From contig CAISTG010000036.1 in NCBI GenBank assembly GCA_903888345.1, positions 1,988 through 65,987 of the forward strand: 64,000 bases of DNA, given 5' to 3'. The notes under the pieces were generated by a model, which saw only the letters and a program-made list of their open reading frames with translations, made no database searches and had not been told where the DNA came from. Positions 2,955 through 44,210 of the stretch are shown in pieces (position 1 is the stretch's first letter; every line of letters begins with the position of its first letter). The translations under genes were made by a program, and so were the position numbers. The DNA is from Candidatus Buchananbacteria bacterium (GTDB lineage: Bacteria; Patescibacteriota; Patescibacteriia; 2-01-FULL-39-33).

Positions 2955-3090
2955 AGACAAGATTACTTTGTTGTTTGGAGTAATTTCTGTTATAATAAAA
3001 GTATATATTACTGCTGTGGATAAGTCAATTTGTAAATTTATTTGTTAAAAATATAATTTTATTAACAATTTAGGGTTGAGGGACAAATTT

Positions 3091-6113: not shown

Positions 6114-7841
6114 ATGCGAAATAAATTTTTTAAAATTTCTTACGCCTTAACGATAATCGCTTTATTGCTGGTTGTCGGTGGTTTGGCAATTAATTTTTAT
6201 CAGGCTCAAGCTGAGGATGTAACTTATAGCTTGGGTGGTTGGATGTGGAGTGATAATTACGGTTGGGTATCTTTAAATAGTAGTAATAGTGGTTTGGTTA
6301 ATTATACTGGGAAGAGTTATCGAGTTGATGTTGCTAGCAATAATCAGTTATCTGGTTGGGGTTGGTCGTCAAATATCGGTTGGGTGTGTTTTGGCTTGAC
6401 TTGTGATCAAGAAAATATCTGTAACGGCCAAGAAACTTGTAATCCTAGTGATTTTGGGACGGCAGCGCCGCCAACTGGCGCCTGGCAAGCAACCATTACT
6501 GATGGCAAACTTGATGGCTGGGCGAAGATTTTGTCACTTAAGGATGAAGGCCTGTTGCATTTAGGCATCGCCGCGAGCAATTATTCTGGTCAAGCCGGAA
6601 TTGATTGTTATGATTGTACCTATAATACCTCAACTACTCCTTTACCAACTGGTGGCTGTCGTACTTGTTTTACCGACACGAAGTATAATAATGAAAACCT
6701 TCCTAATCAAGCAGTAGAATCAGTGGTTGGTGGTAGCGGTAAGATTTGCTCGGCTTGCACTGATTGTAATTTGAGTGGCATTGATAGTAAAATCGCTTGC
6801 CAAACTTGTCAAAGTTGCAAAGCTTATGGCGGCGTTGTTGATGGTTCTAATGGCGCTGTCCTGGGTTGGGGCTGGAATGGCAATCAGGCACCTAATAGTG
6901 AGGTTGGTGCTGGTTGGGTACAGTTTAATCCACTTAACGGAGAATCTGGCATTGTCTATCCTTGGCTACAAACGGTTTATGGAACGGTTTTTAGTCAGAA
7001 TTCGATCAGACAAAAGGCGGCCCTTAAAATGACTAACGCCACCTATTGTATTTTGGCTCAGGGTATTTATAATTTCAAATCCGGCAGTAATTGTAGCGCT
7101 AATGTTAACTTGCAATTTCCGACCTCGACTAGCAATGGCGATGTCGCCTACAAGAACGCTTTAGGGCGCTTGGATGTGGTCGGTTTAACTTTTGAAGTCA
7201 GAAAAACCAAAGATATTAGTTATAATAAGTATGGCAATAAAATTATTACCTTACCTGGTGGCACGGTGGTCGCGACTCCGGTATTGTTAGATAATTCAGT
7301 TTATGTTTATAACGGCGATCTCACTGTTAATTCTGGCTTTTCAATTTTAAATGGCACCAAAGAAAATGAGCGCGGCAACGGTGTTATTATTGTTAATGGT
7401 GATTTACATTTAGCAGCTGACTTTGATTATGAAGCAGATAATTTCGATAATAGTAATTTAAAAAAGCTAGCTTCAGTGGCCTGGATCGTTAAGGGCGACG
7501 TGATCGTTGATCCGGCAGTTAGTAAGGTAGTGGGTGCTTTTGTTGTCTTGGGTGATGGGAGTCCTTGCCTGGAGTCTAGTGGTGCTGCTTGTTCGACTAA
7601 CAATAACTATCCAATTTATCGAGAAAACGGCTATGGCTTATTTGTTTCTGGTAATTCTGCTAATCCTTTGGTTGTTTCCGGCTTAATTGTGGCGAAAGCT
7701 TTTTCTTTTCAGCGCACTTATGCCGATATCAATCAGGGTGCAGAAAAAATCATTTATGACGGACGGCTTATCGCTAATCCGCCGCCCGGTTTAACTGGTT
7801 TTACTGAAAGTTTACCAATTATTAGAGATTTTGAATTTTAA
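6114..7841 (+). CDS. Secreted, membrane-anchored Cys-rich protein of 575 aa with three GWxWSxNxGWVxF repeats. Function unknown, possibly a pilus or surface co-factor.
   Basis: N-terminal MRNKFFK leader plus a transmembrane helix, similar to the preceding gene's leader. Repeats read GGWMWSDNYGWVSLN, SGWGWSSNIGWVCFG and LGWGWNGNQ...GWVQFN. More than 20 cysteines lie in CxxC-like clusters. Confidence 0.5.
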   Translation: MRNKFFKISYALTIIALLLVVGGLAINFYQAQAEDVTYSLGGWMWSDNYGWVSLNSSNSGLVNYTGKSYRVDVASNNQLSGWGWSSNIGWVCFGLTCDQENICNGQETCNPSDFGTAAPPTGAWQATITDGKLDGWAKILSLKDEGLLHLGIAASNYSGQAGIDCYDCTYNTSTTPLPTGGCRTCFTDTKYNNENLPNQAVESVVGGSGKICSACTDCNLSGIDSKIACQTCQSCKAYGGVVDGSNGAVLGWGWNGNQAPNSEVGAGWVQFNPLNGESGIVYPWLQTVYGTVFSQNSIRQKAALKMTNATYCILAQGIYNFKSGSNCSANVNLQFPTSTSNGDVAYKNALGRLDVVGLTFEVRKTKDISYNKYGNKIITLPGGTVVATPVLLDNSVYVYNGDLTVNSGFSILNGTKENERGNGVIIVNGDLHLAADFDYEADNFDNSNLKKLASVAWIVKGDVIVDPAVSKVVGAFVVLGDGSPCLESSGAACSTNNNYPIYRENGYGLFVSGNSANPLVVSGLIVAKAFSFQRTYADINQGAEKIIYDGRLIANPPPGLTGFTESLPIIRDFEF

Positions 7842-7855
7842 TATTTATATATTTT

Positions 7856-8977
7856 ATGTTTGGCTCAAACAATTATAGTTATCTGGGAATTGACCTCGGA
7901 TCATCATCAATCAAAGTTGTCGAGTTAATGAACGTCAAAGGACGTCCACGCTTAATGACTTATGGTTTTACTGAAAAGAATATATCAAATATTGGCGATA
8001 CCGGATTAATTAGTGACGTTAATGAAGCTGCCTTGATTTTGCAAGATATTCTCAAAAAATCAAAAACAACCTCGACTAAAGTGGTGGCTGCTTTGCCAAA
8101 TTATTCAGTTTTTACTTCAATCTTAACTTTGCCCGCCTTAAATAAGAAAGAACTCGCGGCCGCTATCAGCTGGGAGGCCAAAAAAATTATTCCTTTGCCG
8201 TTAGAAGAAATAATTTTAGATTGGAAGATTATTGAAGAATTCGAAACTGGGGGAGCGCGGGGGCAGGATTCGCCATTGCTTGATAAAAGCGTAATGCAGG
8301 ACACTAACCCCTTAAAAAAGATTTTTTCTAAGCCACAAAAAAGCGTTAAAATTCTGTTGACGGGAGCGAGCAAAAGCTTGATCAAAAAGTATGTTGATAT
8401 TTTTGCTAAAGCCAATTTAAATTTATTGAGTTTGGAAACTGAAAGTTTTGCTTTGATTCGCTCATTATTGGGCTCAGATAAATCAACTATTATGTTGATT
8501 GATATGGGTGCTTCGACTTCAAGCGTGACGATTGTTAAGGGTGGGATTCCGGTCTTAACGCGATCATTGGAGTTGGGCGGGCAATCAATCACCAAGGCAG
8601 TTTCTTCGGCTTTGAATGTCACCATGGAAAGAGCCGAACAGTTCAAGCAGGATTTAGCGTTAGACGCAGAAACCTCGGAGAATTCATTGCCGAAAACCGT
8701 CGAGCAGTCATTTGCTCCTATTCTTAATGAAATCAAGTATACTTTTAATTTATATAATGAGGGCAATACGGCCAAAATTGAAAAAATTGTTTTGACTGGT
8801 GGCACGGCTTTAATGGGGCATTTGACTGGTTATTTAGCTAATTACTTTAATATTAATGTCTATATTGGTGATCCCTTTAGCCGGGTAATCTTTCCGACTG
8901 ATTTGAAGCCGGTTCTGGATCGAGTTGGCGCCCGTTTCGCTGTTTCTGTCGGTTTAGCGATGCGTGAAATCGAATAA
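7856..8977 (+). CDS. pilM: Type IV pilus assembly protein PilM, an actin-like ATPase.
   Basis: N-terminus LGIDLGSSSIKVVEL is the canonical PilM/FtsA-like phosphate-1 motif. Length 373 aa. It sits immediately upstream of the pilN-like gene. Confidence 0.85.
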   Translation: MFGSNNYSYLGIDLGSSSIKVVELMNVKGRPRLMTYGFTEKNISNIGDTGLISDVNEAALILQDILKKSKTTSTKVVAALPNYSVFTSILTLPALNKKELAAAISWEAKKIIPLPLEEIILDWKIIEEFETGGARGQDSPLLDKSVMQDTNPLKKIFSKPQKSVKILLTGASKSLIKKYVDIFAKANLNLLSLETESFALIRSLLGSDKSTIMLIDMGASTSSVTIVKGGIPVLTRSLELGGQSITKAVSSALNVTMERAEQFKQDLALDAETSENSLPKTVEQSFAPILNEIKYTFNLYNEGNTAKIEKIVLTGGTALMGHLTGYLANYFNINVYIGDPFSRVIFPTDLKPVLDRVGARFAVSVGLAMREIE

Positions 8978-8981
8978 TTTT

Positions 8982-10376
8982 ATGGATCCAAATTTACTGC
9001 CGCAAGGTTTGCGCGACAAAGAAGAGCAGGAATTAAAGAGGCAGCAAAGGCAGCCTCGTGGTTTTAAAATTGAATTAAATGAACCGACAGATAAGAAAAG
9101 TGCCGCCGCCGTAACCAAATCTGATCGGTCCGGAGCTAGTTGGTGGCAAAATATCTTGGGGATCGCCCCAGTTCCTGTTCTTGGCGATCAGAGCTTAACT
9201 AATCCAACAATTGATAAGACTAGTGTTAGCGACTTGGATTGGCTGACCAATAGTCATCAGAAGAAAGCACCGAAGCATCATCCAAAAACCAGCGCAAAGG
9301 TTACTAGACATAAACGAACTAAAGTAAAAAAACCGGCAAAGACTGGTTGGGTGGGACGACTTTTGGGTCAGCCACTGTCGCCAATCTTACCGATTGCTGC
9401 GGTTAATGATGATAGCTTCGAATCACTAGCCAAAACAGCTCCAGTGCCAGAAACTATTAAGGTCGCAGCTATGGCGGACCAGTCATCGACCATTAAGCCG
9501 GAGCCGAAATCTCAGCCACAGCGTACAGTATTAATTGAAACAAAACGGCCTCAACCTTCAGCTAGTGTCTCGGTTGGTTGGTGGTCAATTATTAAGGGTT
9601 TATTTGGCTGGTCTCACGTCGTTAAGCCTGATTTACAGTTTGCTATCACTAAAACTATTCCAGCACCTTCAGTGCCCGCCGCTAAGCCGACGGCGCACGC
9701 AACTAAGTCGCACTCGGGGCAAGAGACTAAAAAGCCTACTGAAGCAGTGAAATCGACAGTGAAGCCAATATATAATTTGGTGCCGAAACGCGAGCGTGGT
9801 GCCATTAATGTCAATTTGATGCCGCAAGAGCTCAAAGCGGATAGCAAATTATTAGTTACGCTGAAGTTTAATTGGTGGCTGTTTGCTATCATTTTACCGT
9901 TAGTTTTAGTAACTGGCGCGGCTGTAACTTTGCATTATTTGTCGCAAAACCTAGTTACCAGACTGAGTGCTAATGAACGCCAATTAACTGAACTAAATCA
10001 ACAAATTGGTGATTTTGTAATTGAAGAGCAAGCTAATAACCATACGGCACAAAAAATAACGATAGTTAAACGATTAATGGATAACAAAATTGTTTGGAAT
10101 AAGTTTTTTGCTTTGCTGGAAAAATATACTTTGGATGGCGTTTACTTCGATAGTTTAGTCGCCGATACTTCGGGAGAATTAGTGTTGCCGGGAGTTGCCG
10201 AAAATTACACTGTTTTGGCGCAGCAGATCGCTGTTTTTCGTGATGCTAGTGATTTCGTTAAAGAAGTTAAGATTTCTAGCGCGCAGCTGTACTCTGATGT
10301 CAAGGCCGGAGTGCTGGGCACTAGCTTCCAGGTGCGCTTAACGTTACAAGACAACATTTTTAAGCAAGCTAAATAA
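8982..10376 (+). CDS. pilN: PilN-like inner-membrane pilus alignment protein with an unusual N-terminal disordered extension of about 275 aa rich in K, P and T. It carries two INLLP-type PilM-binding motifs. Residues about 280-464 form a canonical PilN (motif, transmembrane helix, coiled coil, periplasmic domain).
   Basis: MDPNLLPQGLR lies at the extreme N-terminus (ATG 8982; the ORF-track start 8964 is a GTG overlapping the pilM stop). The second motif AINVNLMPQELK at about 9801-9836 is followed by the transmembrane helix WWLFAIILPLVLVTGAAVTL and a coiled coil. Confidence 0.7.
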   Translation: MDPNLLPQGLRDKEEQELKRQQRQPRGFKIELNEPTDKKSAAAVTKSDRSGASWWQNILGIAPVPVLGDQSLTNPTIDKTSVSDLDWLTNSHQKKAPKHHPKTSAKVTRHKRTKVKKPAKTGWVGRLLGQPLSPILPIAAVNDDSFESLAKTAPVPETIKVAAMADQSSTIKPEPKSQPQRTVLIETKRPQPSASVSVGWWSIIKGLFGWSHVVKPDLQFAITKTIPAPSVPAAKPTAHATKSHSGQETKKPTEAVKSTVKPIYNLVPKRERGAINVNLMPQELKADSKLLVTLKFNWWLFAIILPLVLVTGAAVTLHYLSQNLVTRLSANERQLTELNQQIGDFVIEEQANNHTAQKITIVKRLMDNKIVWNKFFALLEKYTLDGVYFDSLVADTSGELVLPGVAENYTVLAQQIAVFRDASDFVKEVKISSAQLYSDVKAGVLGTSFQVRLTLQDNIFKQAK

Positions 10377-10385
10377 TTATTAATT

Positions 10386-10985
10386 ATGACTTTGTCGGGA
10401 AAAAACAAGTTAACTGGCTTAATAGCGTTTATTGGCAAACAACAAAAACTGTTCGCTTGGTTGGTGGCACTTGTGATTTTGGTCGCGGGTTATCTGCTGA
10501 TTTTGCAGGGACCATTACGACTCTACGCCGAAAATGTGGTCGTAGAAGACAGGCTAATTGCTGAAATTAAACTGGCCACCAATAATTTAAATGATGCTCG
10601 AAATTATTCTTCACAACTTTATAAGCTATCGACCGAAGAATCGCGTTGGTTGAATTTGGTCTTGCCAGAAAAGCCCGATCCATCATCATTGATTGAGCAT
10701 TTGACTTCACTTGCGCGCCGTGCGGGTTTTAATGTTGCTAGTATTACTTTAGATGAAGCTAATAATCAGGTGGAAGCGCAGGCCGCAACTACTAATGGTC
10801 AGCAGAATATTGGCAAGATTGTAGTCCGACTGAATTTGACTGGTGGTGGCTATCAAGAACTAAAGCGCTTTTTAGATTTAGCGCAGTCTTCAATTATGAT
10901 GATTGACGTTACTTCAATAAATTTTGGCGGTAAAAATTCCGCTTATGATCTGGCCTTGATTGTTTATTATTATCGTAACCAATAA
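10386..10985 (+). CDS. pilO: PilO-like type IV pilus inner-membrane component.
   Basis: 199 aa with an N-terminal transmembrane helix, coiled coil and C-terminal periplasmic domain. Positioned between pilN and pilB. Confidence 0.55.
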   Translation: MTLSGKNKLTGLIAFIGKQQKLFAWLVALVILVAGYLLILQGPLRLYAENVVVEDRLIAEIKLATNNLNDARNYSSQLYKLSTEESRWLNLVLPEKPDPSSLIEHLTSLARRAGFNVASITLDEANNQVEAQAATTNGQQNIGKIVVRLNLTGGGYQELKRFLDLAQSSIMMIDVTSINFGGKNSAYDLALIVYYYRNQ

Positions 10986-10987
10986 CT

Positions 10988-11311
10988 ATGAGTGCGGCAA
11001 AATCAAAAATTAAAAGTTCTGATTGGTTTATCATGATTATCTGTTCGCTAATGCTGGCGGTAATGGTTTTCTGGTATTTTAAAATAAACAGTCCCAGTGG
11101 GGAAGTAGCGCTTCCCGGCTCAGTAGGTTCTTTTCAAATTATTAATCATCAAGCACTAACAGAGTTAAAAGTTTTAAGACTTTGCGGTCAGTGGCCATTT
11201 ACGGCGGTCGTGCGAAGTGCTGATCGAGGTAATCCGTTCGTGCCGAAGAAAGCAGGAGTCACAGAGGTCGTAACTTCTTCGACGCCTGATTGTTTGTCCT
11301 TAAGTCAATAA
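10988..11311 (+). CDS. Small single-pass membrane protein of 107 aa within the pilus operon. Possible functional analogue of PilP; unknown.
   Basis: N-terminal transmembrane helix FIMIICSLMLAVMVFWYF. No recognisable domain. Tightly packed between pilO and pilB. Confidence 0.45.
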   Translation: MSAAKSKIKSSDWFIMIICSLMLAVMVFWYFKINSPSGEVALPGSVGSFQIINHQALTELKVLRLCGQWPFTAVVRSADRGNPFVPKKAGVTEVVTSSTPDCLSLSQ

Positions 11312-11314
11312 CCT

Positions 11315-13057
11315 ATGAATGAATCAAATTACCTGAGTAAAATAAAAGAATATCTATTGACCAATCATTTAATTGATGAGGTGAAATTTCGCGCGGCTCA
11401 AGTTAAATCGGAGCGCTCCGCTCGTGATTTGGAAGAGGTACTTTTGGATGATAAACTTTTTTCAGAGCGGGAATTTAATGATATTAAATCTAAAATTTTC
11501 AATTTGCCTGGGGTAGATTTATCAGAGCGGGAAGCTTCCACTAAGATTTTAAATTTGCTACCACAAAAAGTAGCCGATAATTATCAGGCAGTTATTTTTG
11601 AAAAGCAAGACAATAAAGTGAAGGTTGGTTTGGTTAATCCAGCGAATTTCTTGGCACATGACGCGATTGATTTTTTGGCTAAACAAAACGGTTGGCAAGT
11701 CGATTACTATGTCATTTCAGTCTACGACTTTCGTCGCTTATTCAAACAGTATGGCAGCTATAAAAAGGAATTAAGTAGTGCCTTAGAATCTGCCGAAGAA
11801 AAATTCGCTGTTAAAGACACTACCGCTGATCTGCCGGCTGGCGAACAATTTGATGAGCGTGTCAAGACTGCTCCCGTCGCCAAAATCGTTTCCGTGATTA
11901 TTAGACATGCTGTGGATGGTAAGGCCTCTGATATTCATATTGAACCGGGACGAACCGAAAGCCGTGTTCGTTATCGTGTTGATGGAGTTTTGCATACCTC
12001 ATTGAATTTACCTACTTATTTGCACAATACGGTCGTGTCTCGTATTAAGGTTATGGCAAATTTGCGCTTAGATGAAACGCGTTTGCCACAAGATGGACGT
12101 ATTCGCTCGCAAATTGACGGCAAGAATATTGATTTACGTATTTCGGTTTTGCCCATGCTTAATTCTGAGAAGGTGGTTATTAGAGTCCTTGACACTTCGG
12201 CTGGCGTTCCTTCGCTTAAGGCTTTGGGATTTTCAGATCAGCATGTGGCTATTATAGAACGTAATATCAAAAAACCATTTGGTGTAATTCTTTTAACTGG
12301 TCCGACGGGTAGCGGGAAAACCACAACCTTATGCTCGGTTTTAACAACTTTAAAAAGTGAAGCTTCAAATATCACCACTTTGGAAGATCCAATTGAATAC
12401 TATATTGATGGAGTTAATCAATCACAGGTCAACCCGGAAGTGGGTTTTACTTTCGCTGATGGTTTGCGGGCGATTTTGCGCCAAGATCCAAATATTATTA
12501 TGGTGGGAGAAATCAGAGATAGTGAGACAGCGGAGTTGGTTATTCATGCTGGTTTAACTGGCCATATGGTATTTTCGACTTTGCATACCAATAACGCTTG
12601 GGGCGCTATTCCGCGTATGATTGATATGAAGGCGGAACCTTTCCTATTATCTTCAATTCTTAATTTAGTTATGGCACAGCGTTTAGTGCGTAAATTGTGT
12701 CCTGATTGTCGCCAAGAAGAAACTTTGCCACCAGCCTTATTGGAGAAGATCGCTAAAGAATTGGCTGGCGTACCACAAGAGTATTTGGAAACCTTCACAA
12801 AAAATCCGAAATTTTTTCATGGTAAGGGTTGTGCGTCCTGCAATAATACTGGCTACTCCGGTCGTGCCGTTATCGCCGAATTACTGGAGATAGAACAAGA
12901 TTTGCGCGATATTATTTCCAAAGAAAATTTTGATTCGCAGGCGATTGAGGCGGCCTTTAAAAAACAGAAATACGTCTCATTGTTGCAAGATGGTATCGTG
13001 AAGGCGATGTCTGGTTTGACTTCCATTGACGAAATTATGCGCGTCATGCAAACTTAA
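11315..13057 (+). CDS. pilB: Type IV pilus assembly (extension) ATPase PilB, GspE family.
   Basis: N-terminal GSPII_E N domain. Walker A is LTGPTGSGKTTT. Asp box and Walker B are present. His box is GHMVFSTLHTNNA. The tetracysteine zinc motif reads CPDC...CASCNNTGYSGR. Confidence 0.9.
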   Translation: MNESNYLSKIKEYLLTNHLIDEVKFRAAQVKSERSARDLEEVLLDDKLFSEREFNDIKSKIFNLPGVDLSEREASTKILNLLPQKVADNYQAVIFEKQDNKVKVGLVNPANFLAHDAIDFLAKQNGWQVDYYVISVYDFRRLFKQYGSYKKELSSALESAEEKFAVKDTTADLPAGEQFDERVKTAPVAKIVSVIIRHAVDGKASDIHIEPGRTESRVRYRVDGVLHTSLNLPTYLHNTVVSRIKVMANLRLDETRLPQDGRIRSQIDGKNIDLRISVLPMLNSEKVVIRVLDTSAGVPSLKALGFSDQHVAIIERNIKKPFGVILLTGPTGSGKTTTLCSVLTTLKSEASNITTLEDPIEYYIDGVNQSQVNPEVGFTFADGLRAILRQDPNIIMVGEIRDSETAELVIHAGLTGHMVFSTLHTNNAWGAIPRMIDMKAEPFLLSSILNLVMAQRLVRKLCPDCRQEETLPPALLEKIAKELAGVPQEYLETFTKNPKFFHGKGCASCNNTGYSGRAVIAELLEIEQDLRDIISKENFDSQAIEAAFKKQKYVSLLQDGIVKAMSGLTSIDEIMRVMQT

Positions 13058-13128: not shown

Positions 13129-13509
13129 ATGCCAAAAAACAAACAGATTAATATCTTAATTGTGGAGGACGATGTATTTTTAGCGGATTTGTATAAAACC
13201 AAGTTTACTTTGGAAGGATTTAAAGTAATTACCGCCTATGATGGTGAAAAGGGCTTGGAAGCTGCCAAGAAAAATTTGCCGGATATTGTACTATTGGACT
13301 TGGTCTTACCAAAACTCAGTGGTTTCGATGTTCTCAAAGGCATTAAGGCTGATCCGGCTACCAAGAATATTCCGGTAATTTTGTTGACTAATTTGAGCCA
13401 AAAGTCTGATGTAGAAACCGGCATCAAATTAGGGGCGAATGACTATTTGATCAAGGCGCATTTTATGCCATCAGAAGTGGTTGAAAAAATAAAAAAACTT
13501 ATCAATTAA
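13129..13509 (+). CDS. Stand-alone response-regulator receiver domain, CheY/PilH-like, 126 aa.
   Basis: ILIVEDD acidic pocket. Phospho-acceptor Asp sits in LLDLVLP. A conserved Lys sits in YLIKAHF. There is no output domain. The gene lies between pilB and the pilT-like gene. Confidence 0.8.
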   Translation: MPKNKQINILIVEDDVFLADLYKTKFTLEGFKVITAYDGEKGLEAAKKNLPDIVLLDLVLPKLSGFDVLKGIKADPATKNIPVILLTNLSQKSDVETGIKLGANDYLIKAHFMPSEVVEKIKKLIN

Positions 13510-13519
13510 TTGACGGTTT

Positions 13520-14587
13520 ATGGAAGTGAGTCAGAACGCTGTGCTGCGTGATATTTTATCAGAATTGATTAAATTGCGGGCTTCCGATGTCCATTTTTCG
13601 GTTGGTAATTATCCTACTTTGCGTATTGGTCGCGAATTACGGTCGCTGGAGCAACGAGAGTTGATTAACCAGGAATTTATGGAAAAGTTGGTTAATTTTT
13701 TGTTAACCAAAGAACAGCAGGCCAAATTATATCGAGACAAAGAAATAATTATTGCCTATGATTTTGATAAACAGCTGCGTTTTAAGGTGATTATTTTTTA
13801 TCAGCGGTCCTTCTTGTCGGCGACTTTGCGGTATATTCCTCGCCAGCTTGCCACCTTAAGTGAATTGGGTGTAGCAGAAGTGATTTCCCAGTTTACTACC
13901 TTGAGTAGTGGTTTAGTAATAATTTCTGGCACTTTTGGTTCGGGGCGCTCATCCACGACGGCGGCTCTAATTGAGGAGATTAATCGCACCAAGAAAAAGT
14001 ATATTTTAACAATCGAGGATCCAATTGAATATATATTTGTTAATAATTTGAGCATTATTGAACAGCGTGAAGTTGGACGTGACACCAATTCTTTCGCTGA
14101 TGCCCTGAAGTATTTTCAGGAAGAAGATGGTGATGTGCTTTATCTAGAACAGATGTCGCCGTCAGAAATTATACCCTCAGTATTAGAGATTGCCAGTAAT
14201 TCTTTGGTGGTGACTTCGATGGCCGCAGATACGGCTACGAAAACAATTGCTGCGATTATCGATAGTTTCACCAGTTTTGATCAAGAACGAGTTAAGGATT
14301 TGTTGGCGAGTTCGTTGCGGGCGGTTGTTTGTCAAAAAATGATACCGCGGGCGGGCGGAGGAGTAAAAGTCATATGTGAAGTCTTATTGGCAAATAATTC
14401 TGTTAAATCCATAATTTCGAGTGGCAATATCAATCAATTGGAGGGCATTATCCAGACCTCGCGTCAGGAGGGAATGATTAGTTTTAACCAAGCCTTGAGT
14501 GAAGCCGTTAAAAGGGGAGAGATTAAACCGGCTGAAGCGCTGGCTCACGCTCCTAACGCGGCGGTCCTGCAAGATTTAATCCGTTAA
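13520..14587 (+). CDS. pilT: PilT-like retraction-ATPase homolog with degenerate catalytic motifs; probable pseudo-ATPase.
   Basis: Overall PilT architecture, length and the IEDPIEY Walker B/Asp box are kept. Walker A reads GTFGSGRSS, with Lys replaced by Arg (codon near 13946-13948). The His box (HTN) is replaced by SMAADTA. GEMRD is replaced by EQMS. The PilB in the same window keeps all of these motifs. Confidence 0.8.
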   Translation: MEVSQNAVLRDILSELIKLRASDVHFSVGNYPTLRIGRELRSLEQRELINQEFMEKLVNFLLTKEQQAKLYRDKEIIIAYDFDKQLRFKVIIFYQRSFLSATLRYIPRQLATLSELGVAEVISQFTTLSSGLVIISGTFGSGRSSTTAALIEEINRTKKKYILTIEDPIEYIFVNNLSIIEQREVGRDTNSFADALKYFQEEDGDVLYLEQMSPSEIIPSVLEIASNSLVVTSMAADTATKTIAAIIDSFTSFDQERVKDLLASSLRAVVCQKMIPRAGGGVKVICEVLLANNSVKSIISSGNINQLEGIIQTSRQEGMISFNQALSEAVKRGEIKPAEALAHAPNAAVLQDLIR

Positions 14588-14597
14588 TCTTATTACC

Positions 14598-15806
14598 ATG
14601 AGTATTTATCATTTTAAGGCGCGAGATAGTAAGGGCCAATATGTTGAGGGTGTCGTAGAGGCAATTTCGACCGAAGCTGCTGCCGAAATCGTCTCGGGTA
14701 AAAAACTGGCCATTTTGGAAATATCGTTACAGCCGTTAAGGTCACCCATTTTTTTGGCGGATTTTTTTGCTAAAAAGGTTTCTACCAAGGATTTAGTGGT
14801 TTTTTTTAGACAATTATCGGTAATGTTAGAAGCAAATTTACCTTTGGTTCGGGCTTTAAGGATCTTATCTCGACAAACCAAAAATAAGTTTTTTCAAAAG
14901 ATTATCGATGGTGCCGCAGACGAAGTGGATGGAGGTAGCCTTTTGTCGGCCGCGTTAGAGATTTATCCTCGAGTTTTCACCAAATTTTATGTAAATATTA
15001 TCCGCTCAGGTGAGACTTCTGGCCGTCTGTCTGAAGTCATGATTTATTTGGCTAATCAAAAGGAGAAGGATTACGACGTTGAATCAAAAGTTAAGGGGGC
15101 AATGATCTATCCCGCGTTTATTTTAGGTGCCTTAGCCGTTGTTGGTTTTATTGTTTTGACTTTTGTTATTCCGAGTATGACGGCGATGCTAGTCGAATCT
15201 GGAGTAACTTTACCACTTTTAACACGACTTTTGATTGGTTTATCAAATATTTTCAAAAATTACTGGTGGTTAATAATCTCATTGGTTTTGGCTTTTATCG
15301 TTTTCTGGAATTATTGGCTTAAAACCGAGATCGGACGCAAGTTTTTTGATGAGGCTAAGTTAAGGTTGCCAATTTTTGGCAAAGTATTTCAGAATATTTA
15401 TATCGTGAGAATTTGCTTGAGTTTTGCTACCCTGATTAAGGGCGGAGTGCCAATTGCTGTTTCGCTCGGGGTAGTTAAGGACGTTGTGGATAACGTTATT
15501 TATGAACAGATCTTAGTTACGGCCACTAAAAGCGTCGGTGAGGGCAATCAGATCGCTGCGAGTCTGGCTACGAGTCACTATATTCCGACCGTGGTCACTC
15601 AAATGATTGCCGTGGGCGAGGAATCGGGAAAGTTAGAGGAAATACTAGAAAAAGTGGCTGATTTTTACTCGCGCGAAATCGATAACACAGTTAGTAACCT
15701 CTCAAGTTTGCTCGAGCCAATTATTATGATTATTTTAGGGTTGGCAGTTGGCGTCTTTGTGGCGGCCGTAATTTTGCCGATGTGGCAACTCTCTTCCTCT
15801 TTTTAG
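14598..15806 (+). CDS. pilC: Type IV pilus inner-membrane platform protein PilC, GspF family.
   Basis: N-terminus MSIYHFKARDSKGQYVEGVVEA is typical of PilC. Two T2SSF repeats with three transmembrane segments. Length 402 aa. Confidence 0.9.
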   Translation: MSIYHFKARDSKGQYVEGVVEAISTEAAAEIVSGKKLAILEISLQPLRSPIFLADFFAKKVSTKDLVVFFRQLSVMLEANLPLVRALRILSRQTKNKFFQKIIDGAADEVDGGSLLSAALEIYPRVFTKFYVNIIRSGETSGRLSEVMIYLANQKEKDYDVESKVKGAMIYPAFILGALAVVGFIVLTFVIPSMTAMLVESGVTLPLLTRLLIGLSNIFKNYWWLIISLVLAFIVFWNYWLKTEIGRKFFDEAKLRLPIFGKVFQNIYIVRICLSFATLIKGGVPIAVSLGVVKDVVDNVIYEQILVTATKSVGEGNQIAASLATSHYIPTVVTQMIAVGEESGKLEEILEKVADFYSREIDNTVSNLSSLLEPIIMIILGLAVGVFVAAVILPMWQLSSSF

Positions 15807-15951
15807 TTAAAATAAGTTGTTAAATGTGCTATAATAATAATGTCAGGCTGTGGAAAACTTTTTAAAAGGTCGAAATCAATTTTTTTACGGCTCAACATTT
15901 TATCCATTCGCGAATGGGAAAAAATTTTTATTTAAAAACTAATCAAACATT

Positions 15952-16350
15952 ATGAATAAGAAAGGTTTTACTTTGATCGAATTATTGGTGGTTATCGCCA
16001 TCATCGCCATTCTTTCTGCTGTCGCCGTCGTTTATTTAACTGACGCTCGTACTAAAGCTCAGGATGCCGCTGTTGCTTCTAATATCTCAACTGCTTCAAC
16101 TCAATTAGAATTGGATAGAATTGCTTCTACCACTTTCGCCGTTAATGGCGACATTGCTTCTATCATCACCAAATTGGGCGCTTATCCTTGCGCTGCTGGT
16201 AAGACTGGTTGGACAGCTATTGGTAATAGCGATTCTAGCAGTGTGGCTTTTTATGCTCAGAATTGTTCTAATTCTAGCTACTTCTGTGCTGATACCAATG
16301 GTTTTAGAGGTTCTAGCACTTTGGCCGCTCTTAACGGCGCTTGCCGCTGA
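15952..16350 (+). CDS. pilA: Major type IV pilin, PilA-like prepilin.
   Basis: MNKKG|FTLIELLVVIAIIAIL is a canonical prepilin leader with a G-F cleavage site and Glu5. The C-terminal domain has two Cys pairs. The gene is followed by a strong terminator. Confidence 0.85.
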   Translation: MNKKGFTLIELLVVIAIIAILSAVAVVYLTDARTKAQDAAVASNISTASTQLELDRIASTTFAVNGDIASIITKLGAYPCAAGKTGWTAIGNSDSSSVAFYAQNCSNSSYFCADTNGFRGSSTLAALNGACR

Positions 16351-16380
16351 AGATAGGTTGACTGTAAATTTCAAACATGA

Positions 16381-16412
16381 ATCCGCCTCGGGTTACCGGG
16401 GCGGATTTTTTT
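16381..16412 (+). terminator. Rho-independent terminator after the major pilin gene.
   Basis: Stem atccgcc-tcgg ... ccg-ggcggat followed by a run of 7 T, placed about 30 nt after the pilA stop. Confidence 0.65.
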
Positions 16413-16446
16413 AATGGTCGAGTTATGGTATAATATTAGTAAATAT

Positions 16447-16854
16447 ATGTTACAACGACTAAGATTTAAAATTATTTTATATTTGGCAATTTTCGCGATT
16501 TTGCTACTAGCTTTGGCATTTTGGATTTATCTGGCACGCGCGCAGAGTCGGGATTATCAGCGCTTGGCTGACTTAAAGATAACGCAAGATATACTGGCTA
16601 GTTATTATGGCAAATTTGCGACCTATCAATTGCCAAATTGTCTTGTCGGAGAAACAGTCAGTCAATGTTTGTCGACTAAAGTTGGTTCTCCGGTAATTAA
16701 CAATATTATTGACCCACTTAATAATACGTCTTATAGTTACGTTATCGGTAGTTTAGCGGACTCTGATTATGAGATTAATTTTTCCTTAGAGGTGGGTATT
16801 GGTGGTTTAAGCCGAGGCAATTATGTTTTAACAAAAAATGGCATTAGACGATGA
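16447..16854 (+). CDS. Pilin-like protein without a canonical prepilin cleavage/methylation motif.
   Basis: MLQRLRFK, a hydrophobic helix, then ARAQSRDYQRLADLKITQDILASYY. This matches the conserved ARDARR.ADLKQIQTAL..YY alpha1-C motif of T4 pilins, but no G|FTLIE site is present. The alternative start at 16414 lies directly after the pilA terminator. The 3' end overlaps the pilD start. Confidence 0.45.
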   Translation: MLQRLRFKIILYLAIFAILLLALAFWIYLARAQSRDYQRLADLKITQDILASYYGKFATYQLPNCLVGETVSQCLSTKVGSPVINNIIDPLNNTSYSYVIGSLADSDYEINFSLEVGIGGLSRGNYVLTKNGIRR

Positions 16855-17624
16855 TTTATCTTAACTTATTAGTAGTCTCTCTGGGCTTGGTAGTCGGCAG
16901 CTTTCTTAATGCCTTGATTTATCGAATTCATAGTGGCGAATCAATTGCGGCCGGTCGGTCAAAATGCCCACATTGTCAGCACTCTTTAACGATTAAAGAT
17001 TTGGTGCCTGTTTTAAGTTTTGTTTGGTTACGCGGACATTGCCGATATTGTCGTCAAGCCATCGCCTGGCAATATCCGGTAGTTGAAGCAGTAACTGCTT
17101 TGCTATTTTGGTTGGCCTTCAGTGTCAATCTTCAACTCTATCCGACTAATTGGGAGTTAGTAGCACATTGTTTCCGAGATTTTTTGGTTCTTAGTGCTCT
17201 GGTTGTGGTGTTTGTCTATGATTTAAAGTGGATGTTGATTCCTGACAGCGTTGTTTTACCGGTGGTGGTGGTCACAGTGATTATTAATCTATTATTGGGC
17301 CAATCGCTGCTGCAATTATTGCTGAGTCTAGCTATTGGTTTTGGTTTTTTTGCTATTCAATATTATTTTTCTGGCGGTACCTGGATCGGCGGTGGTGATT
17401 TACGCCTGGGTTTGTTAATGGGAGCAGTTTTGGCTTGGCCCAATTTGTTGGTCGCGATTTTCTTGGCATATATCGTGGGAGCGACGGTCAGTGTCGGACT
17501 ATTATTGACCAAGAAAGTCAATCGTAAAACTGAGGTACCTTTTGGTGTTTTTTTGGCGCCGGCCACCGTAGTCGCTTTACTGTGGGGTAGTCAATTGCTT
17601 AATTGGTATCTTTCTCTTTTATGA
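16851..17624 (+). CDS. pilD: Prepilin peptidase / N-methyltransferase PilD (A24 family).
   Basis: N-terminal zinc motif CPHCQHS...CRYCRQ. Eight predicted transmembrane segments. Conserved Asp-containing segments are present. Confidence 0.9.
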   Translation: MIYLNLLVVSLGLVVGSFLNALIYRIHSGESIAAGRSKCPHCQHSLTIKDLVPVLSFVWLRGHCRYCRQAIAWQYPVVEAVTALLFWLAFSVNLQLYPTNWELVAHCFRDFLVLSALVVVFVYDLKWMLIPDSVVLPVVVVTVIINLLLGQSLLQLLLSLAIGFGFFAIQYYFSGGTWIGGGDLRLGLLMGAVLAWPNLLVAIFLAYIVGATVSVGLLLTKKVNRKTEVPFGVFLAPATVVALLWGSQLLNWYLSLL

Positions 17625-18130
17625 AACGAGGTTTTACCTTAGTTGAATTATTGGTGGCGATGGCAATTGTTAGTTTGTTGTCGACTTTTGTCGTTTTTAA
17701 ATATGTCGAAAATGATCAAGTAAAACATCTAAAAAATCAAGCGGAACTTATTATTGATGGCCTGGAAAAAACGCAAAATATGGCTTTGACCGGCCAAACA
17801 ACTAGTGACCGAACACCGCTAGCTTATCGTTTTCAGCTGGCGGAATGTACCACTGATTGTTCTTATCAAATAGTTGCTGTGTTTGCTGCTGATGGGCAGG
17901 ACGAAGAAGTCGTTGAGAATAAAAATTTCGGTCAAGCGCTTATAACAACTAATACTGGTCAGCCCTTGTTGGCAACTTTTAATTTACCGCGGGGCCGCTT
18001 AAGTCTTAATGACAATCAGGCGGATTCGGCTTGGGCACAGATTGCTAATGAGGATAGTTTCTTTTGTGTTAAAGTAATTGCTGTTTCTGGACGCCTCGAT
18101 TTGCTCAGTGGTGAATGTACTAATTTATGA
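17621..18130 (+). CDS. Minor pilin / pseudopilin with a prepilin-type N-terminus.
   Basis: MKRG|FTLVELLVAMAIVSLL. The ORF-track start at 17603 adds 6 residues. Confidence 0.75.
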   Translation: MKRGFTLVELLVAMAIVSLLSTFVVFKYVENDQVKHLKNQAELIIDGLEKTQNMALTGQTTSDRTPLAYRFQLAECTTDCSYQIVAVFAADGQDEEVVENKNFGQALITTNTGQPLLATFNLPRGRLSLNDNQADSAWAQIANEDSFFCVKVIAVSGRLDLLSGECTNL

Positions 18131-18705
18131 TGAGGGCTAAAGGTCAAAGTTTAATTGAATTGATTGTGGCAGTCGCCGTAATTCAGGTCGGCTTGTTTAG
18201 TATTTGGTCATTATTTTTGGTGAATTTTAATGCCGAAAAGGAGGCGGAATATCGTATTGTTGGTGTTAATCTAGCACGCGAAGGCATTGAAGTTATTAAG
18301 AATATTCGCGATGCTAATTGGCAAAAACGTCAGTATAATGTTATGGCGAATGAAACTCAGATCTACTCTTGGGATCAGAATTTAACGGCTGGCACGTGGA
18401 GTGTTAATTTTTCTAGTCGTGTACCTAATGCCGAAACAATGTCCGCCTTATATTTTGATAGTGCAGGATTTTTTACGACCGCCAAGACGGCTAGTACAAC
18501 TCCGTATAGTCGTCAAATCAAAATTAAGAATATTTGTTGTGCGGATGCTAATAGTGACTATAAATGCGATAACACCAATTATTACCTCAGTTCAGATTAC
18601 TGTGCTTCAAAGATTGGTATTAATGTGGTTAGTCAAGTGAACTGGCAAATCACTGGGCATCAACGGCAATCAATTATTGAAGATAATTTATATGATTGGC
18701 AATAA
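18127..18705 (+). CDS. Minor pilin / pseudopilin.
   Basis: MMRAKGQ|SLIELIVAVAVIQ prepilin-like N-terminus. C-terminal domain is Cys-rich. Confidence 0.7.
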   Translation: MMRAKGQSLIELIVAVAVIQVGLFSIWSLFLVNFNAEKEAEYRIVGVNLAREGIEVIKNIRDANWQKRQYNVMANETQIYSWDQNLTAGTWSVNFSSRVPNAETMSALYFDSAGFFTTAKTASTTPYSRQIKIKNICCADANSDYKCDNTNYYLSSDYCASKIGINVVSQVNWQITGHQRQSIIEDNLYDWQ

Positions 18706-19258
18706 CCAGTGGCGACAACAACGAGGCTTTACTTTGGCGGAAATGATTGTTACTGTCGGTGTGTTTGCTATTGCGCTTTCGATTGCTTCAGTTGTTATTT
18801 TGAGTGTGAATAAATTGCAGCAGAATACCGCTAATTTAGAAAAATTACAAAATGAAGGTCGCTACTTAATGGAAAAGATGGCCAAAGAAGTGCGTGGTCG
18901 AGCCTTGGATTATTCTCAGTTGTCTAGTGATCTTGATGGAGTCGCTAGCACTTTAGTTTTTAAACAAGATGAGTTGGGTGAGACTTTAGCTATCAGTTAT
19001 TTGCCTGACGACCAAGCCATCAGGTTAACTAGCGCTCAAGACGGCAGGACCAACTCCGCTAATCTAAATTCCGAGGAGGTGCTGGTAACATCGGCTAAGT
19101 TTATTGTTAATCCGCTTCTTGATCCGGCGACAGAAAGTACACCCCTAGAGCAGCCGCGAGTAACGATTTTACTAACTCTTAAGAATCGTGATGGGCGGGC
19201 AGAATTTCAAAAACAATTAACCTTACAAACCACCATTTCCAGTAATATTTATCGCTAA
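18692..19258 (+). CDS. Minor pilin / pseudopilin.
   Basis: ...QQRG|FTLAEMIVTVGVFAIAL prepilin motif with Glu5. Confidence 0.7.
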   Translation: MIGNNQWRQQRGFTLAEMIVTVGVFAIALSIASVVILSVNKLQQNTANLEKLQNEGRYLMEKMAKEVRGRALDYSQLSSDLDGVASTLVFKQDELGETLAISYLPDDQAIRLTSAQDGRTNSANLNSEEVLVTSAKFIVNPLLDPATESTPLEQPRVTILLTLKNRDGRAEFQKQLTLQTTISSNIYR

Positions 19259-19260
19259 AT

Positions 19261-20145
19261 ATGTTTAACGGTCAAACTGACAATCGAGGCGTAATCCTGG
19301 TCTTTACTTTATTGATTATGGCGATTTTATTATCTACCGCAATTGGTTTTTCTTATTTTATTATGAGCGACATCAATAAAGCGAAGGCGATCGATGATTC
19401 TATCATCGCTTATTACGCAGCTGATGCTGGCATGGAAGAATCTTTGTATCTTTATAAAAAAGAGCAGGTGGCACCGTCGTTAAATACCTTGAAGGCATTA
19501 CGGCCAACTGGTAAAACACTTGAATTGTCGGGTGGCGCTTGGAGTATTAATGATTCGACTGATTATGAAAAAGGTTTTTTGCGGCAACGTTTGTATAATG
19601 GCCAAAGTATTAAGTTTTTTGTTTTGAATCGTAATGCGGCGCAGCAGCCGAATGAGACTCAAAGTTTATCGGTTTATTGGTTGCGCGGGGAAGCAACGAC
19701 CGCTAAATTACAAGTGACCTTAACGCAACTAGTTCCGCAGCAGCAGGATGGCTCATTAGTTTATTATACGGACACCTCAGTTTTGGAGGCGGCGGATTCT
19801 GTTACCAATGCTAGTGGCCAGACCTGCTATTTATTGAAAAATTCTTCTTTACCGGGGAATCCGGTTTTAACTCAGCCGTCGGATTATGTGGCTGAATTGA
19901 AGGTGTTGGGGAGTCAACAGGACTTTGTTGACCGGATTGAAGTTAAAGCTTATAATAATTCCGAATGTAAGGATGTGGGAGTCAATGGTCTTAACGAACA
20001 AGGTATCACTAACGTGACTCTAAAGTCTCGTGGACATTATGGACGCGCTGATCAGAGTATTGTTGCTCAAATCGTGCCACAAGACCCAGTTTCGGGGTTG
20101 TTAGGATTTGTTTTGTTTTCCGAAAATGACATCACTAAGGAGTAA
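19261..20145 (+). CDS. PilX-like minor pilin / pilus-associated protein (PilX_N-type domain).
   Basis: N-terminal transmembrane helix followed by AYYAADAGMEESLY, which matches the A.YAAEAGLE motif of PilX N-terminal domains. Confidence 0.55.
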   Translation: MFNGQTDNRGVILVFTLLIMAILLSTAIGFSYFIMSDINKAKAIDDSIIAYYAADAGMEESLYLYKKEQVAPSLNTLKALRPTGKTLELSGGAWSINDSTDYEKGFLRQRLYNGQSIKFFVLNRNAAQQPNETQSLSVYWLRGEATTAKLQVTLTQLVPQQQDGSLVYYTDTSVLEAADSVTNASGQTCYLLKNSSLPGNPVLTQPSDYVAELKVLGSQQDFVDRIEVKAYNNSECKDVGVNGLNEQGITNVTLKSRGHYGRADQSIVAQIVPQDPVSGLLGFVLFSENDITKE

Positions 20146-20158
20146 TCATTGTCGTTAA

Positions 20159-22165
<2,007 letters not shown>

Positions 22166-44130: not shown

Positions 44131-44210
44131 GCAGTACTCCTTGGTGGTTGAAACAACTAAAATTCGTTATTACAATCTAGCAGATAACTTATATATTGTC
44201 AATAGCTATT

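Follow-up and report, generated by a model that had tools for sequence, protein, structure and literature searches.

What function is left to a type IV pilus retraction ATPase when the residues of its active site have been replaced? PilT is the textbook case of a very powerful molecular motor, and a central part in attaching to hosts and taking up DNA is ascribed to the pili of uncultivated episymbiotic Patescibacteria. The 64-kb stretch of Candidatus Buchananbacteria DNA analyzed here (the window) includes a pilus operon with a PilT-like gene that raises this question. A sequence-only reading had proposed that the product is a pseudo-ATPase, an accessory copy comparable to PilU, PilT2 or BfpF. 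The gene, its operon and its relatives were compared with characterized PilT systems.

Results

The features of the operon and the motifs of the PilT-like protein are listed in Table 1. By alignment and gene position, the product of the gene is a degenerate ortholog of the retraction ATPase PilT. It belongs to the superfamily defined by Pfam PF00437 T2SSE (55.6 bits against a cutoff of 24.9, residues 8-278), and phmmer searches of the PDB matched it to Aquifex PilT (2ewv, E=3.7e-63) and Geobacter PilT (6ojx, E=2.9e-54) more strongly than to PilU (2.7e-44). The Aquifex and Geobacter alignments span residues 7-355 and contain only single-residue gaps, and this end-to-end match bore out the statement that overall length and the IEDPIEY motif are retained. 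NCBIfam TIGR01420 is by far its best-scoring family, but its 283.7 bits stay under the curated threshold of 319.1, which canonical Patescibacterial PilTs exceed with 422-448. The AF2 model (pLDDT 92, pTM 0.87) was superimposed by Foldseek on Geobacter PilT4-ATP (6ojx_A) with a TM of 0.92 and an rmsd of 1.7 Å over 348 columns, and by this model the protein keeps the full-length PilT fold, an N-terminal PAS-like domain followed by a RecA-like C-terminal domain. When compared to canonical PilT (Aquifex aeolicus 2ewv, Geobacter metallireducens PilT4 6ojx and P. aeruginosa 3jvv), it is alike in length and two-domain fold, shares about 30-35% identity over the full length and has the Asp box, the P-loop glycines and the R81 equivalent in common, whereas the Walker A Lys, the catalytic Glu, both His-box histidines, R195, R207 and the AIRNLIRE motif are replaced.

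Table 1. Features of the pilus operon and motifs of the PilT-like protein (positions in the window)
Feature	Position	Strand	Basis
pilM	7856-8977	+	PilM_2 2.3e-43
pilN-like	8964-10376	+	named by position and synteny (four loci)
pilO-like	10386-10985	+	named by position and synteny (four loci)
small ORF (x)	10988-11311	+	position and synteny (four loci)
PilB extension ATPase	11315-13057	+	Pfam T2SSE 5.5e-125, MshEN
CheY-like single-domain receiver, ends 10 nt upstream of the PilT-like gene	13129-13509	+	Response_reg 2e-23, 83.1 bits
PilT-like gene, 355 aa, ATG start	13520-14587	+	ORF, Pfam T2SSE, PDB PilT matches 1e-63 to 1e-50
variant Walker A/P-loop GTFGSGRSS (canonical GPTGSGKST)	13928-13954	+	PDB PilT alignments
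Asp box IEDPIEY, kept, residues 165-171	14012-14032	+	PDB PilT alignments
altered Walker B DVLYLEQMSP (canonical DV..VGEMRD)	14132-14161	+	PDB PilT alignments
former His box SNSLVVTSMAADTA, S228 and A235 for both His	14195-14236	+	PDB PilT alignments
NSVKSIIS at the PilT AIRNLIRE position, residues 293-300	14396-14419	+	alignment to Aquifex/Geobacter PilT
PilC platform protein, begins 10 nt downstream of the PilT-like gene	14598-15806	+	Pfam T2SSF 2.2e-58
major pilin	15952-16350	+	N_methyl (region 15952-20145)
prepilin peptidase PilD	16851-17624	+	A24_N_bact, Peptidase_A24
minor-pilin-like genes up to ligA	within 15952-20145	+	ORFs

The alignments to PDB PilTs placed R143 (CGC, 13946-13948) at the position of the Lys that is invariant in GxxGxGK[ST], as the earlier reading had noticed, and its codon is at least two base changes away from every Lys codon. 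Within the same loop F139 stands where canonical PilTs have Thr, Ser or Ala. In the Walker B region, which reads LEQMSP in place of VGEMRD, Q211 (14150-14152) takes the place of the catalytic Glu, E210 that of Gly, and S213 and P214 those of the R-D of GEMRD. Gln at the catalytic Glu position is a classic hydrolysis-blocking change. The canonical His box ETGHLVFGTLHTN corresponds to SN-SLVVTSMAAD, and the two histidines (H223 and H230 in Geobacter) are both gone. Relative to Geobacter PilT, then, the changes comprise K137 to R, catalytic E to Q, H223 to S, H230 to A, R207 to S, R195 to E and T133 to F, and five closed-interface residues are changed as well (D32 to G, R124 to S, R195 to E, G277 to V and G339 to A). 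The idea that charges had been exchanged in compensation between R195 and D161, an interface pair, was considered and dropped, because the cross-table held no clear signal that common descent would not explain. A misplaced indel hiding a conserved Lys or His had been set beforehand as the observation that would overturn these assignments. This possibility fails because the whole protein has just two histidines, H25 and H343, and no Lys lies within 14 residues of the P-loop. The claim that the PilT-C region is retained held for the fold and not for the PilT-specific motif, which is kept as AIRNLIR or AVRNLIR in canonical Patescibacterial PilTs. This C-terminal AIRNLIRE motif is diagnostic of PilT as opposed to PilU.

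The PilT-like gene is X in a conserved operon, pilM-N-O-x-pilB-cheY-X-pilC-pilins-pilD-ligA. All motifs of the PilB encoded upstream are canonical (GPTGSGKTT, EDPIEY, GEIRD, TLHTNNA and the CPDC/CASC cysteines), in agreement with the earlier description of its Walker A, TLHTNNA and zinc-binding cysteines. The operon is tightly packed, its only strong terminator follows the pilin gene (16379-16408), and the search for an internal promoter or terminator that would split cheY-pilT from pilB or pilC returned nothing above shuffled expectation. The gene order pilB-cheY-X-pilC identifies X as PilT by positional orthology. The same slot is filled by a canonical PilT in eight loci of related Patescibacteria and by a degenerate PilT in more than 35 loci. 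Because canonical PilT occupies this slot in some relatives, the PilT-like gene is a degenerate ortholog and not the extra accessory copy that had been proposed. Among Patescibacteria, locus one of the type IV pilus genes of Saccharibacteria TM7x has pilB, pilT, pilC and pilM-N-O in one operon as found here, and the Walker A and B boxes of its PilT are reported to be well conserved (PMC11623550). The three Saccharibacteria-labelled loci in our set are likewise canonical, unlike the PilT-like gene.

The degenerate motifs are not a peculiarity of one gene, as they might have appeared, but the trait of a large lineage. About 80 close homologues were found, all from Patescibacteria (Buchananbacteria/Falkowbacteria-like), which share GxFGSGRS and lack the His box. 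Since Arg occupies the Walker A Lys position in 78 of the 79 full-length close homologues and the His box is missing in all 79, the pattern is neither chance nor sequencing error. Larger sets of His-less (n=199) and His-containing (n=307) PilTs were then compared, both seeded from the PilT-like protein and hence not an unbiased sample. The Walker A residue of the His-less sequences is Arg in 145, Lys in 50 and another residue in 4, and their catalytic position is occupied by E (102), Q (27), K (18), D (15), S (9), N (6), R (6) or A (4). The H230 equivalent is S, N, E, T, D or A in all 199, and the R195 and R207 equivalents are mostly missing. In contrast, the His-containing PilTs have Lys in 306/307, the catalytic Glu in 306/307, R195 in 307/307 and R207 in 306/307. 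What the His-less set keeps are the Asp-box equivalents E160 (196/199) and E164 (199/199) and the R81 equivalent (199/199).

Conservation within the degenerate clade is strong. In an alignment of 56 of its sequences G137, F139, G142 and R143 are invariant, G140, S141 and S144 are conserved in at least 90%, and 34 columns are invariant and about 60 nearly so at 50-70% identity. Frameshifts or truncations were not seen among the roughly 200 diverged homologues, which are full-length. Where the PilBs of two loci share 40-50% identity, their PilTs share 55% if canonical and 34-38% if degenerate; by this sequence comparison the degenerate PilT evolves faster than canonical PilT and is still under selection. 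With its catalytic residues gone and its fold and sequence under purifying selection, the protein would be classified as a pseudoenzyme. A neighbor-joining tree, which is indicative only, grouped all His-less forms in one clade, sister to the canonical Patescibacterial operon PilTs.

A second PilT encoded elsewhere was looked for in several ways. A tblastn search of the window detected PilB and the PilT-like gene and no second PilT. Other PilT genes outside the operon do occur in Patescibacteria: a canonical 347-aa family adjoins queH in seven loci, some of them in bins labelled Falkowbacteria, and a Lys-retaining, His-less paralog adjoins a pilM-like gene in six. The neighbors that form the queH block around the orphan canonical PilT are absent from the window, no locus examined has another PilT within 10 kb of the degenerate operon PilT, and no contig carries both (the one candidate pair of degenerate and canonical clusters, P0093 and P0510, lies on different contigs, as determined by blastn). 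A scan of GTDB recorded one locus per genome and cannot show the absence of a second PilT, since most canonical PilTs escape its patterns: of 120 orphan canonical PilTs they recognize 16, and of 120 of the Paceibacteria type, 0.

The gene immediately upstream, correctly recognized before as a CheY-like receiver, has all the residues expected of one (E13-D14-D15, D57, T87 and K109), and 45 syntenic homologues share the phospho-acceptor residues. In the first five gene contexts the insertion of cheY seemed tied to catalytic loss, an idea that was refuted by six canonical operon PilTs also preceded by CheY. Because CheY accompanies canonical PilTs too, its presence is no evidence for special regulation of the degenerate form. 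No histidine kinase was found among about 45 ORFs scanned in the window, nor were cognate kinase or chemosensory genes near cheY. Response regulators bind type IV pilus motors in Synechocystis (10.1101/2021.06.11.447907). As in the case of PilG/PilH and the Synechocystis PATAN response regulators, a single-domain receiver with an intact phospho-acceptor pocket is found here beside motor genes. Unlike those regulators, it is part of the core operon itself, where its gene separates pilB from pilT, and its interaction with the motor is putative.

Discussion

The substitutions E204A and H229A abolished the motor function of P. aeruginosa PilT (PMC6858323), and K136A that of V. cholerae PilT (PMC9815625). 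Because mutations of equivalent residues in real PilTs have this effect, a non-motor role, regulatory or scaffolding, is by analogy the most likely reading of the PilT-like protein. Nucleotide binding is probably kept, since the P-loop, the Mg-binding Ser and the Asp box are strongly conserved; the free exchange of Lys and Arg together with the variable catalytic position would fit a role in binding and not one in catalysis. We therefore lean, with some reservation, toward a PilT derivative that binds nucleotide, hydrolyzes it little if at all and serves the pilus platform as a switch or adaptor, perhaps controlled by CheY. The pseudo-ATPase proposed earlier stands insofar as the protein is of the PilT family and its catalytic residues are replaced, "catalytically dead" being a prediction from its motifs. 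The analogy with PilU, PilT2 and BfpF and the accessory status fall away.

A mechanism of this kind could operate as follows. The PilT ortholog of a large Patescibacterial lineage would have lost the chemistry of hydrolysis while keeping the fold, the phosphate-binding loop and its place in the operon. The nucleotide phosphates would be bound by R143, S144 and the glycines of the P-loop, Mg2+ by the glutamates of the Asp box, and the nucleotide would be hydrolyzed very slowly or never, so that the protein would act by occupancy without performing mechanical work. A PilT-shaped ring, probably hexameric although several closed-interface residues differ from those of Geobacter PilT, may compete with PilB for the PilC/PilM platform. 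This putative competition would halt extension and permit slow motor-independent retraction, or else set the machine in an active or inactive state. A phosphorylatable CheY encoded 10 nt upstream would be a likely input to such a switch. Pili are able to retract slowly in the absence of PilT (bioRxiv 10.1101/497933; 10.1101/2021.03.09.434644).

The precedents invoked earlier do not apply. PilU, PilT2 and BfpF belong to the same family as the PilT-like protein, but they are active ATPases in which the Walker A Lys, the Walker B Glu and the His box are all present. They are also additional paralogs, and the gene described here is the operon ortholog. Characterized PilT paralogs keep all four motifs, as do Geobacter PilT1-4 (PMC5065972), and PilU aligns worse than PilT with the PilT-like protein. 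A parallel is provided by the engineered ATPase-dead PilTs (V. cholerae K136A; P. aeruginosa E204A and H229A), PilT scaffolds without hydrolysis, a state that is predicted here. These are laboratory point mutants, whereas the changes in the PilT-like protein are natural, spread across several motifs, and fixed and conserved in a lineage.

We consider it rather unlikely that the protein continues to work as a retraction ATPase by means of a rewired site, in which Arg143 would substitute for Lys and a classical acidic Walker B pair formed by E210 (with E211 in many relatives) would replace the Glu/His relay. Such a site would be compatible with the strong conservation of the P-loop, Ser144 and the Asp box, with the 102 of 199 His-less sequences that keep the catalytic Glu and the E or D found at 210 in most group A members, where this acidic residue yields a Walker B of the classical hhhhE-E/Q type, and with the persistence of the gene in the core operon; Kti12, furthermore, has naturally lost its Walker A Lys and keeps ATPase activity (PMC7363723). 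However, the protein itself has Gln at the catalytic position, many relatives have K, R, N, S or A there, and H229A or E204A alone suffices to kill PilT function (PMC6858323). R195 and R207, invariant or nearly so in the 307 canonical sequences, are gone, and the evolutionary rate is clearly above that of canonical PilT at equal PilB divergence. Some His-less members may nonetheless hydrolyze ATP, as about half of them keep the catalytic Glu and a quarter the Lys.

Another idea, in which the protein lacks ATPase activity and serves as docking adaptor for an active second motor of the PilT/PilU type from elsewhere in the genome, takes its model from V. cholerae, where PilU cannot support retraction without PilT and can do so with the ATPase-dead PilT K136A (PMC9815625). 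The queH-linked canonical and pilM-linked His-less PilTs show that Patescibacteria do encode PilT genes outside the operon. On the other hand, K136A PilT has a role as docking partner of PilU, whereas the searches of the window, of the 10 kb around the loci and of shared contigs did not find the degenerate operon PilT together with another PilT that could be its partner motor, and we regard this arrangement as improbable. That the gene is simply decaying and has no remaining function, as the lost catalytic motifs and faster evolution might suggest, is effectively refuted by conservation: the frame is intact and full-length across the diverged homologues, the alignment retains its many invariant columns with the newly fixed F139 and R143 among them, the gene keeps its place in the operon and the AF2 model has high confidence.

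Conservation of the His-box histidine has been ascribed to all PilT/VirB11-like proteins (PMC6858323). A PilT ortholog that is conserved across a lineage without this histidine, and mostly without the Walker A Lys, contradicts that generalization and offers a natural counterpart to the ATPase-dead mutants used for the study of PilT/PilU coordination and PilT-dependent surface signaling. Our literature searches, which did not cover most subscription-journal papers and do not prove novelty, found no report of a degenerate or pseudo-ATPase PilT or of such a Patescibacterial clade. The degenerate ortholog is relevant, too, to the use of pili by uncultivated episymbiotic Patescibacteria. Should a functional retraction motor be missing in these lineages, their pili may not retract, or only weakly, unlike those of cultured twitching Saccharibacteria. 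As a speculation that we hold to be doubtful, a large Patescibacterial branch could be without any hydrolyzing PilT, the motor having turned once, early, into a ring gated by nucleotide and controlled by CheY, whose sole action would be to let the platform engage or release PilB. In that case pili would retract passively or through a PilB working in both directions, and the free Lys/Arg exchange in the P-loop would mark the conversion from motor to sensor. The current names "PilT/PilU family type 4a pilus ATPase" and "twitching motility protein PilT" probably overstate the function of these proteins.

Catalytic Motifs of the PilT-like Protein

Searches of PDB sequences with phmmer placed PilT proteins as the best matches of the PilT-like protein (Aquifex 2ewv, 3.7e-63; Geobacter 6ojx, 2.9e-54; Thermus 5fl3; Pseudomonas 3jvu). 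PilU was next at 2.7e-44, and DotB, PilB and GspE were far weaker. The PilT alignments span residues 7-355 with single-residue gaps only, and a confident AF2 model (pLDDT 92) matches ATP-bound Geobacter PilT4 with a TM of 0.92 and an rmsd of 1.7 A. The NCBIfam TIGR01420 score is 283.7 bits against a cutoff of 319.1 (canonical Patescibacterial PilTs score 422-448), so that some database records say only 'ATPase, T2SS/T4P/T4SS family'.

A sequence-only reading had described this protein as a probable pseudo-ATPase in which the Walker A Lys is replaced by Arg, the His box is lost, GEMRD is altered and the Asp box is kept, next to a PilB that keeps its Walker A, His box and zinc-binding cysteines. 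The sequence observations were confirmed, those on the PilT-like protein by the PDB PilT alignments, coordinates and codons; PilB has all canonical motifs as well as its zinc-site cysteines. Walker A changes from GPTGSGKST to GTFGSGRSS, Walker B from ...VGEMRD to DVLYLEQMSP and the His box from ETGHLVFGTLHTN to SN-SLVVTSMAAD, while the Asp box IEDPIEY is unchanged; R143, Q211 and A235 are encoded by CGC, CAG and GCC. A mis-aligned indel concealing the Lys or His is excluded because the only histidines are H25 and H343 and there is no lysine near the P-loop. The one sequence statement that failed concerned the PilT-C region, where the fold is retained and the AIRNLIRE motif is not (NSVKSIIS).

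Residues mapped to G. metallireducens PilT numbering (roles after PMC6858323), with their frequencies in the pooled set of single-domain sequences
PilT residue	Role	Window protein	His-containing (n = 307)	His-less (n = 199)
K137	Walker A Lys	R143	Lys 306	Arg 145, Lys 50, other 4
S138	Mg binding; Ser/Thr after Lys/Arg	S144	307	197
E205 (P. aeruginosa E204)	catalytic Glu	Q211	Glu 306	Glu 102, rest Q/K/D/S/N/R/A
H223, H230	His box	S228, A235
T221	proposed proton relay	N227 (alignment may be off by one residue; neighbourhood lacks Thr)
T133	proposed proton relay	F139
R207	GEMRD Arg	S213	306	mostly lost
R195	interface Arg	E201	307	mostly lost
D32, R124, G277, G339	closed interface	G37, S130, V282, A342
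R81		R87	306	199
E160	E160-D-P-I-E164	kept	307	196
E164	E160-D-P-I-E164	kept	307	199
E178, G180, P271		kept

Operon Context and Orthology

The pilus operon is tightly packed, with gaps of 10 nt on either side of the PilT-like gene. Between cheY, this gene and pilC, promoter and terminator signals do not rise above background; the sole strong terminator follows the pilin gene. By tblastn, pilB and the PilT-like gene are the only secretion-ATPase genes in the 64 kb.

Features of the window
Feature	Position	Strand	Remarks
Large protein	3076-6108		1010 aa, no Pfam match
Large protein	6114-7841		575 aa, no Pfam match
pilM	7856-8977
pilN-like gene	8964-10376		470 aa, no Pfam match
pilO-like gene	10386-10985
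Small ORF	10988-11311
pilB	11315-13057
CheY-like receiver	13129-13509
PilT-like gene	13520-14587	+	355 aa, start ATG
pilC	14598-15806
Promoter-like site	15807-15835		extended -10
Pilin	15952-16350
Terminator	16379-16408		13-bp stem
pilD	16851-17624
Minor-pilin-like genes	between pilD and ligA
ligA	20168-22165
Two MreB paralogs, MreC, PBP2-type transpeptidase	28284-29285, 44196-45251, 45284-46081, 46607-48514

Gene contexts were compared in five homologues and 80 GTDB loci (L numbers denote homologous loci from related genomes), and the order pilM-N-O-x-pilB-(cheY)-X-pilC-pilins-pilD-ligA was conserved. The X slot holds a fully canonical PilT in L006, L024, L031, L032, L037, L039, L040, L041 and L066, a Lys-retaining, His-less form in L026, L028, L033-35, L038, L042, L048 and L085, and an Arg-bearing, His-less form in the window and about 30 loci. 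Since relatives carry canonical PilT in the same slot of the same operon, the PilT-like gene is a positional ortholog of PilT. A rough NJ tree, indicative only, places all His-less forms in a single clade whose sister group is the canonical operon PilTs of Patescibacteria, and Lys and Arg forms interleave within that clade.

When divergence was normalised to that of PilB, canonical PilT was conserved above PilB (median +7 identity points) and degenerate forms below it (-9 to -12 points); at 40-50% PilB identity, PilT identity was 55% in canonical pairs versus 34-38% in degenerate pairs. Judged from these rates, the constraint on degenerate PilT is relaxed, though it clearly persists.

The receiver encoded upstream is probably phosphorylatable, since 45 syntenic homologues preserve its acidic pocket (E13-D14-D15), D57, T87 and K109. 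The window encodes no histidine kinase. A tie between cheY insertion and catalytic loss was rejected, as six canonical operon PilTs have cheY and three do not.

Distribution of the Degenerate Forms

A search of 5.8 billion proteins returned about 85 close homologues (50-70% identity), where named all Patescibacteria (Buchananbacteria, Falkowbacteria), sharing GxFGSGRS[ST], IEDPIEY, DVLFLE[EQK]x and xxxSADSA. G137, F139, G142 and R143 were invariant in a 56-sequence alignment. Run against 1.84 billion cluster representatives, a profile search gave 6983 relatives at E<=1e-30. Of the best 150, 137 contain a full PilT domain once only, and 54 of the 137 lack the His-box histidine (Walker A: 31 Arg, 20 Lys, 3 other). 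The pooled set comprised 506 distinct single-domain sequences, 307 His-containing and 199 His-less, and the contrast between the two groups is stark despite the bias of a sample seeded from the query. Such conservation indicates that the degenerate motifs are a trait of a clade, not an accident.

Proteins P0240-P0247 from the profile search (700-1000 aa) carry two tandem PilT domains, with canonical or nearly canonical motifs in most domains, and their scores against the clade profile are very high. A Patescibacteria-type pilus operon with degenerate PilT is also present in GTDB entries named 'uncultured Gammaproteobacteria' (TPA_asm bins; L011-L013, L016, L018, L019, L029, L036, L038, L048, L053, L063 and L085), whose organism labels look wrong.

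Proposed Role and Alternatives

The most economical reading of these patterns is a PilT-shaped protein that would bind nucleotide, hydrolyze it poorly or not at all and act by binding the PilC/PilM platform. Conservation of the P-loop glycines, of Arg/Lys and Ser/Thr, and of the Asp-box glutamates makes it probable that nucleotide binding is kept, and the free Lys/Arg exchange fits a site at which charge and phosphate binding are all that counts. Hydrolysis would be poor or absent because the Glu/His apparatus has gone, residues vary at the catalytic position and the window protein has a natural 'E-to-Q' there; E204A and H229A each abolish twitching (PMC6858323). We favor the version in which the protein is an occupancy switch: it would compete with PilB, stopping extension, after which slow motor-independent retraction or inactivation of the machine may follow, with CheY~P as a plausible input. 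There is precedent in V. cholerae, where ATPase-dead PilT K136A still functions as the partner needed by PilU (PMC9815625), and in Synechocystis, where response regulators bind the T4P motor (10.1101/2021.06.11.447907). Low-force retraction without PilT has been reported (10.1101/497933; 10.1101/2021.03.09.434644). No account of a naturally degenerate PilT turned up in full-text literature searches. Characterised PilT paralogs keep all motifs (PMC5065972), and the only PilT from Patescibacteria treated in the publications found, that of TM7x, is reported as canonical (PMC11623550).

A rewired but active ATPase is unlikely, set beside the loss of the Glu/His apparatus, though it would draw on E210/E211 in many relatives and on Kti12, which is active without a Walker A Lys (PMC7363723). 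We consider it still less probable that the protein is an adaptor for a distal motor. Two other PilT-like families occur in Patescibacteria, neither of them in the 64-kb window. One, nested within the His-less clade (NJ tree), keeps Lys in Walker A and Glu in Walker B and has no His box (L004, L017, L018, L021, L023, L087; about 10001-11074 or 7001-8071 of its loci); a pilM-like gene always follows it, and it sits between pth and mfd, close to dprA-topA. The other is a canonical 347-aa PilT beside queH (L070, 6977-8020; L089; L091-95), away from any pilus operon, in the order queH-pilT-109-aa ORF...DUF5656-PDZ protease-pgk, comprising 120 or more clusters with >=67% identity to the query, bins labelled Falkowbacteria included. 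Most canonical PilTs escape the patterns used in the GTDB scan. One apparent pairing of a degenerate with a canonical PilT was a coincidence, disproved by blastn. A functionless relic is excluded by the conservation.

Other Observations

At 40-50% PilB identity, PilC identity was 46% with degenerate PilT versus 35% with canonical PilT; relative to PilB, PilC is better conserved in degenerate-PilT operons, a trend opposite to that of PilT. The two large proteins directly 5' of pilM have same-sized, Pfam-less counterparts in L001, L003 and L005 and look like conserved uncharacterised parts of the Patescibacterial pilus operon. An unusual length also marks the pilN-like gene, whose product has a long N-terminal half with a high content of Lys, Pro, Ser and Thr. 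The promoter-like site just 5' of the major pilin gene and the strong terminator just 3' of it suggest a pilin unit within the operon that is expressed separately and at a high level. Among the minor-pilin genes of the related operon L001, a gene at 15608-15955 with 23S_rRNA_IVP/bAvd family matches is a candidate accessory gene for a diversity-generating retroelement. The MreB, MreC and PBP2-type genes give this small Patescibacterial genome a complete rod-shape set.
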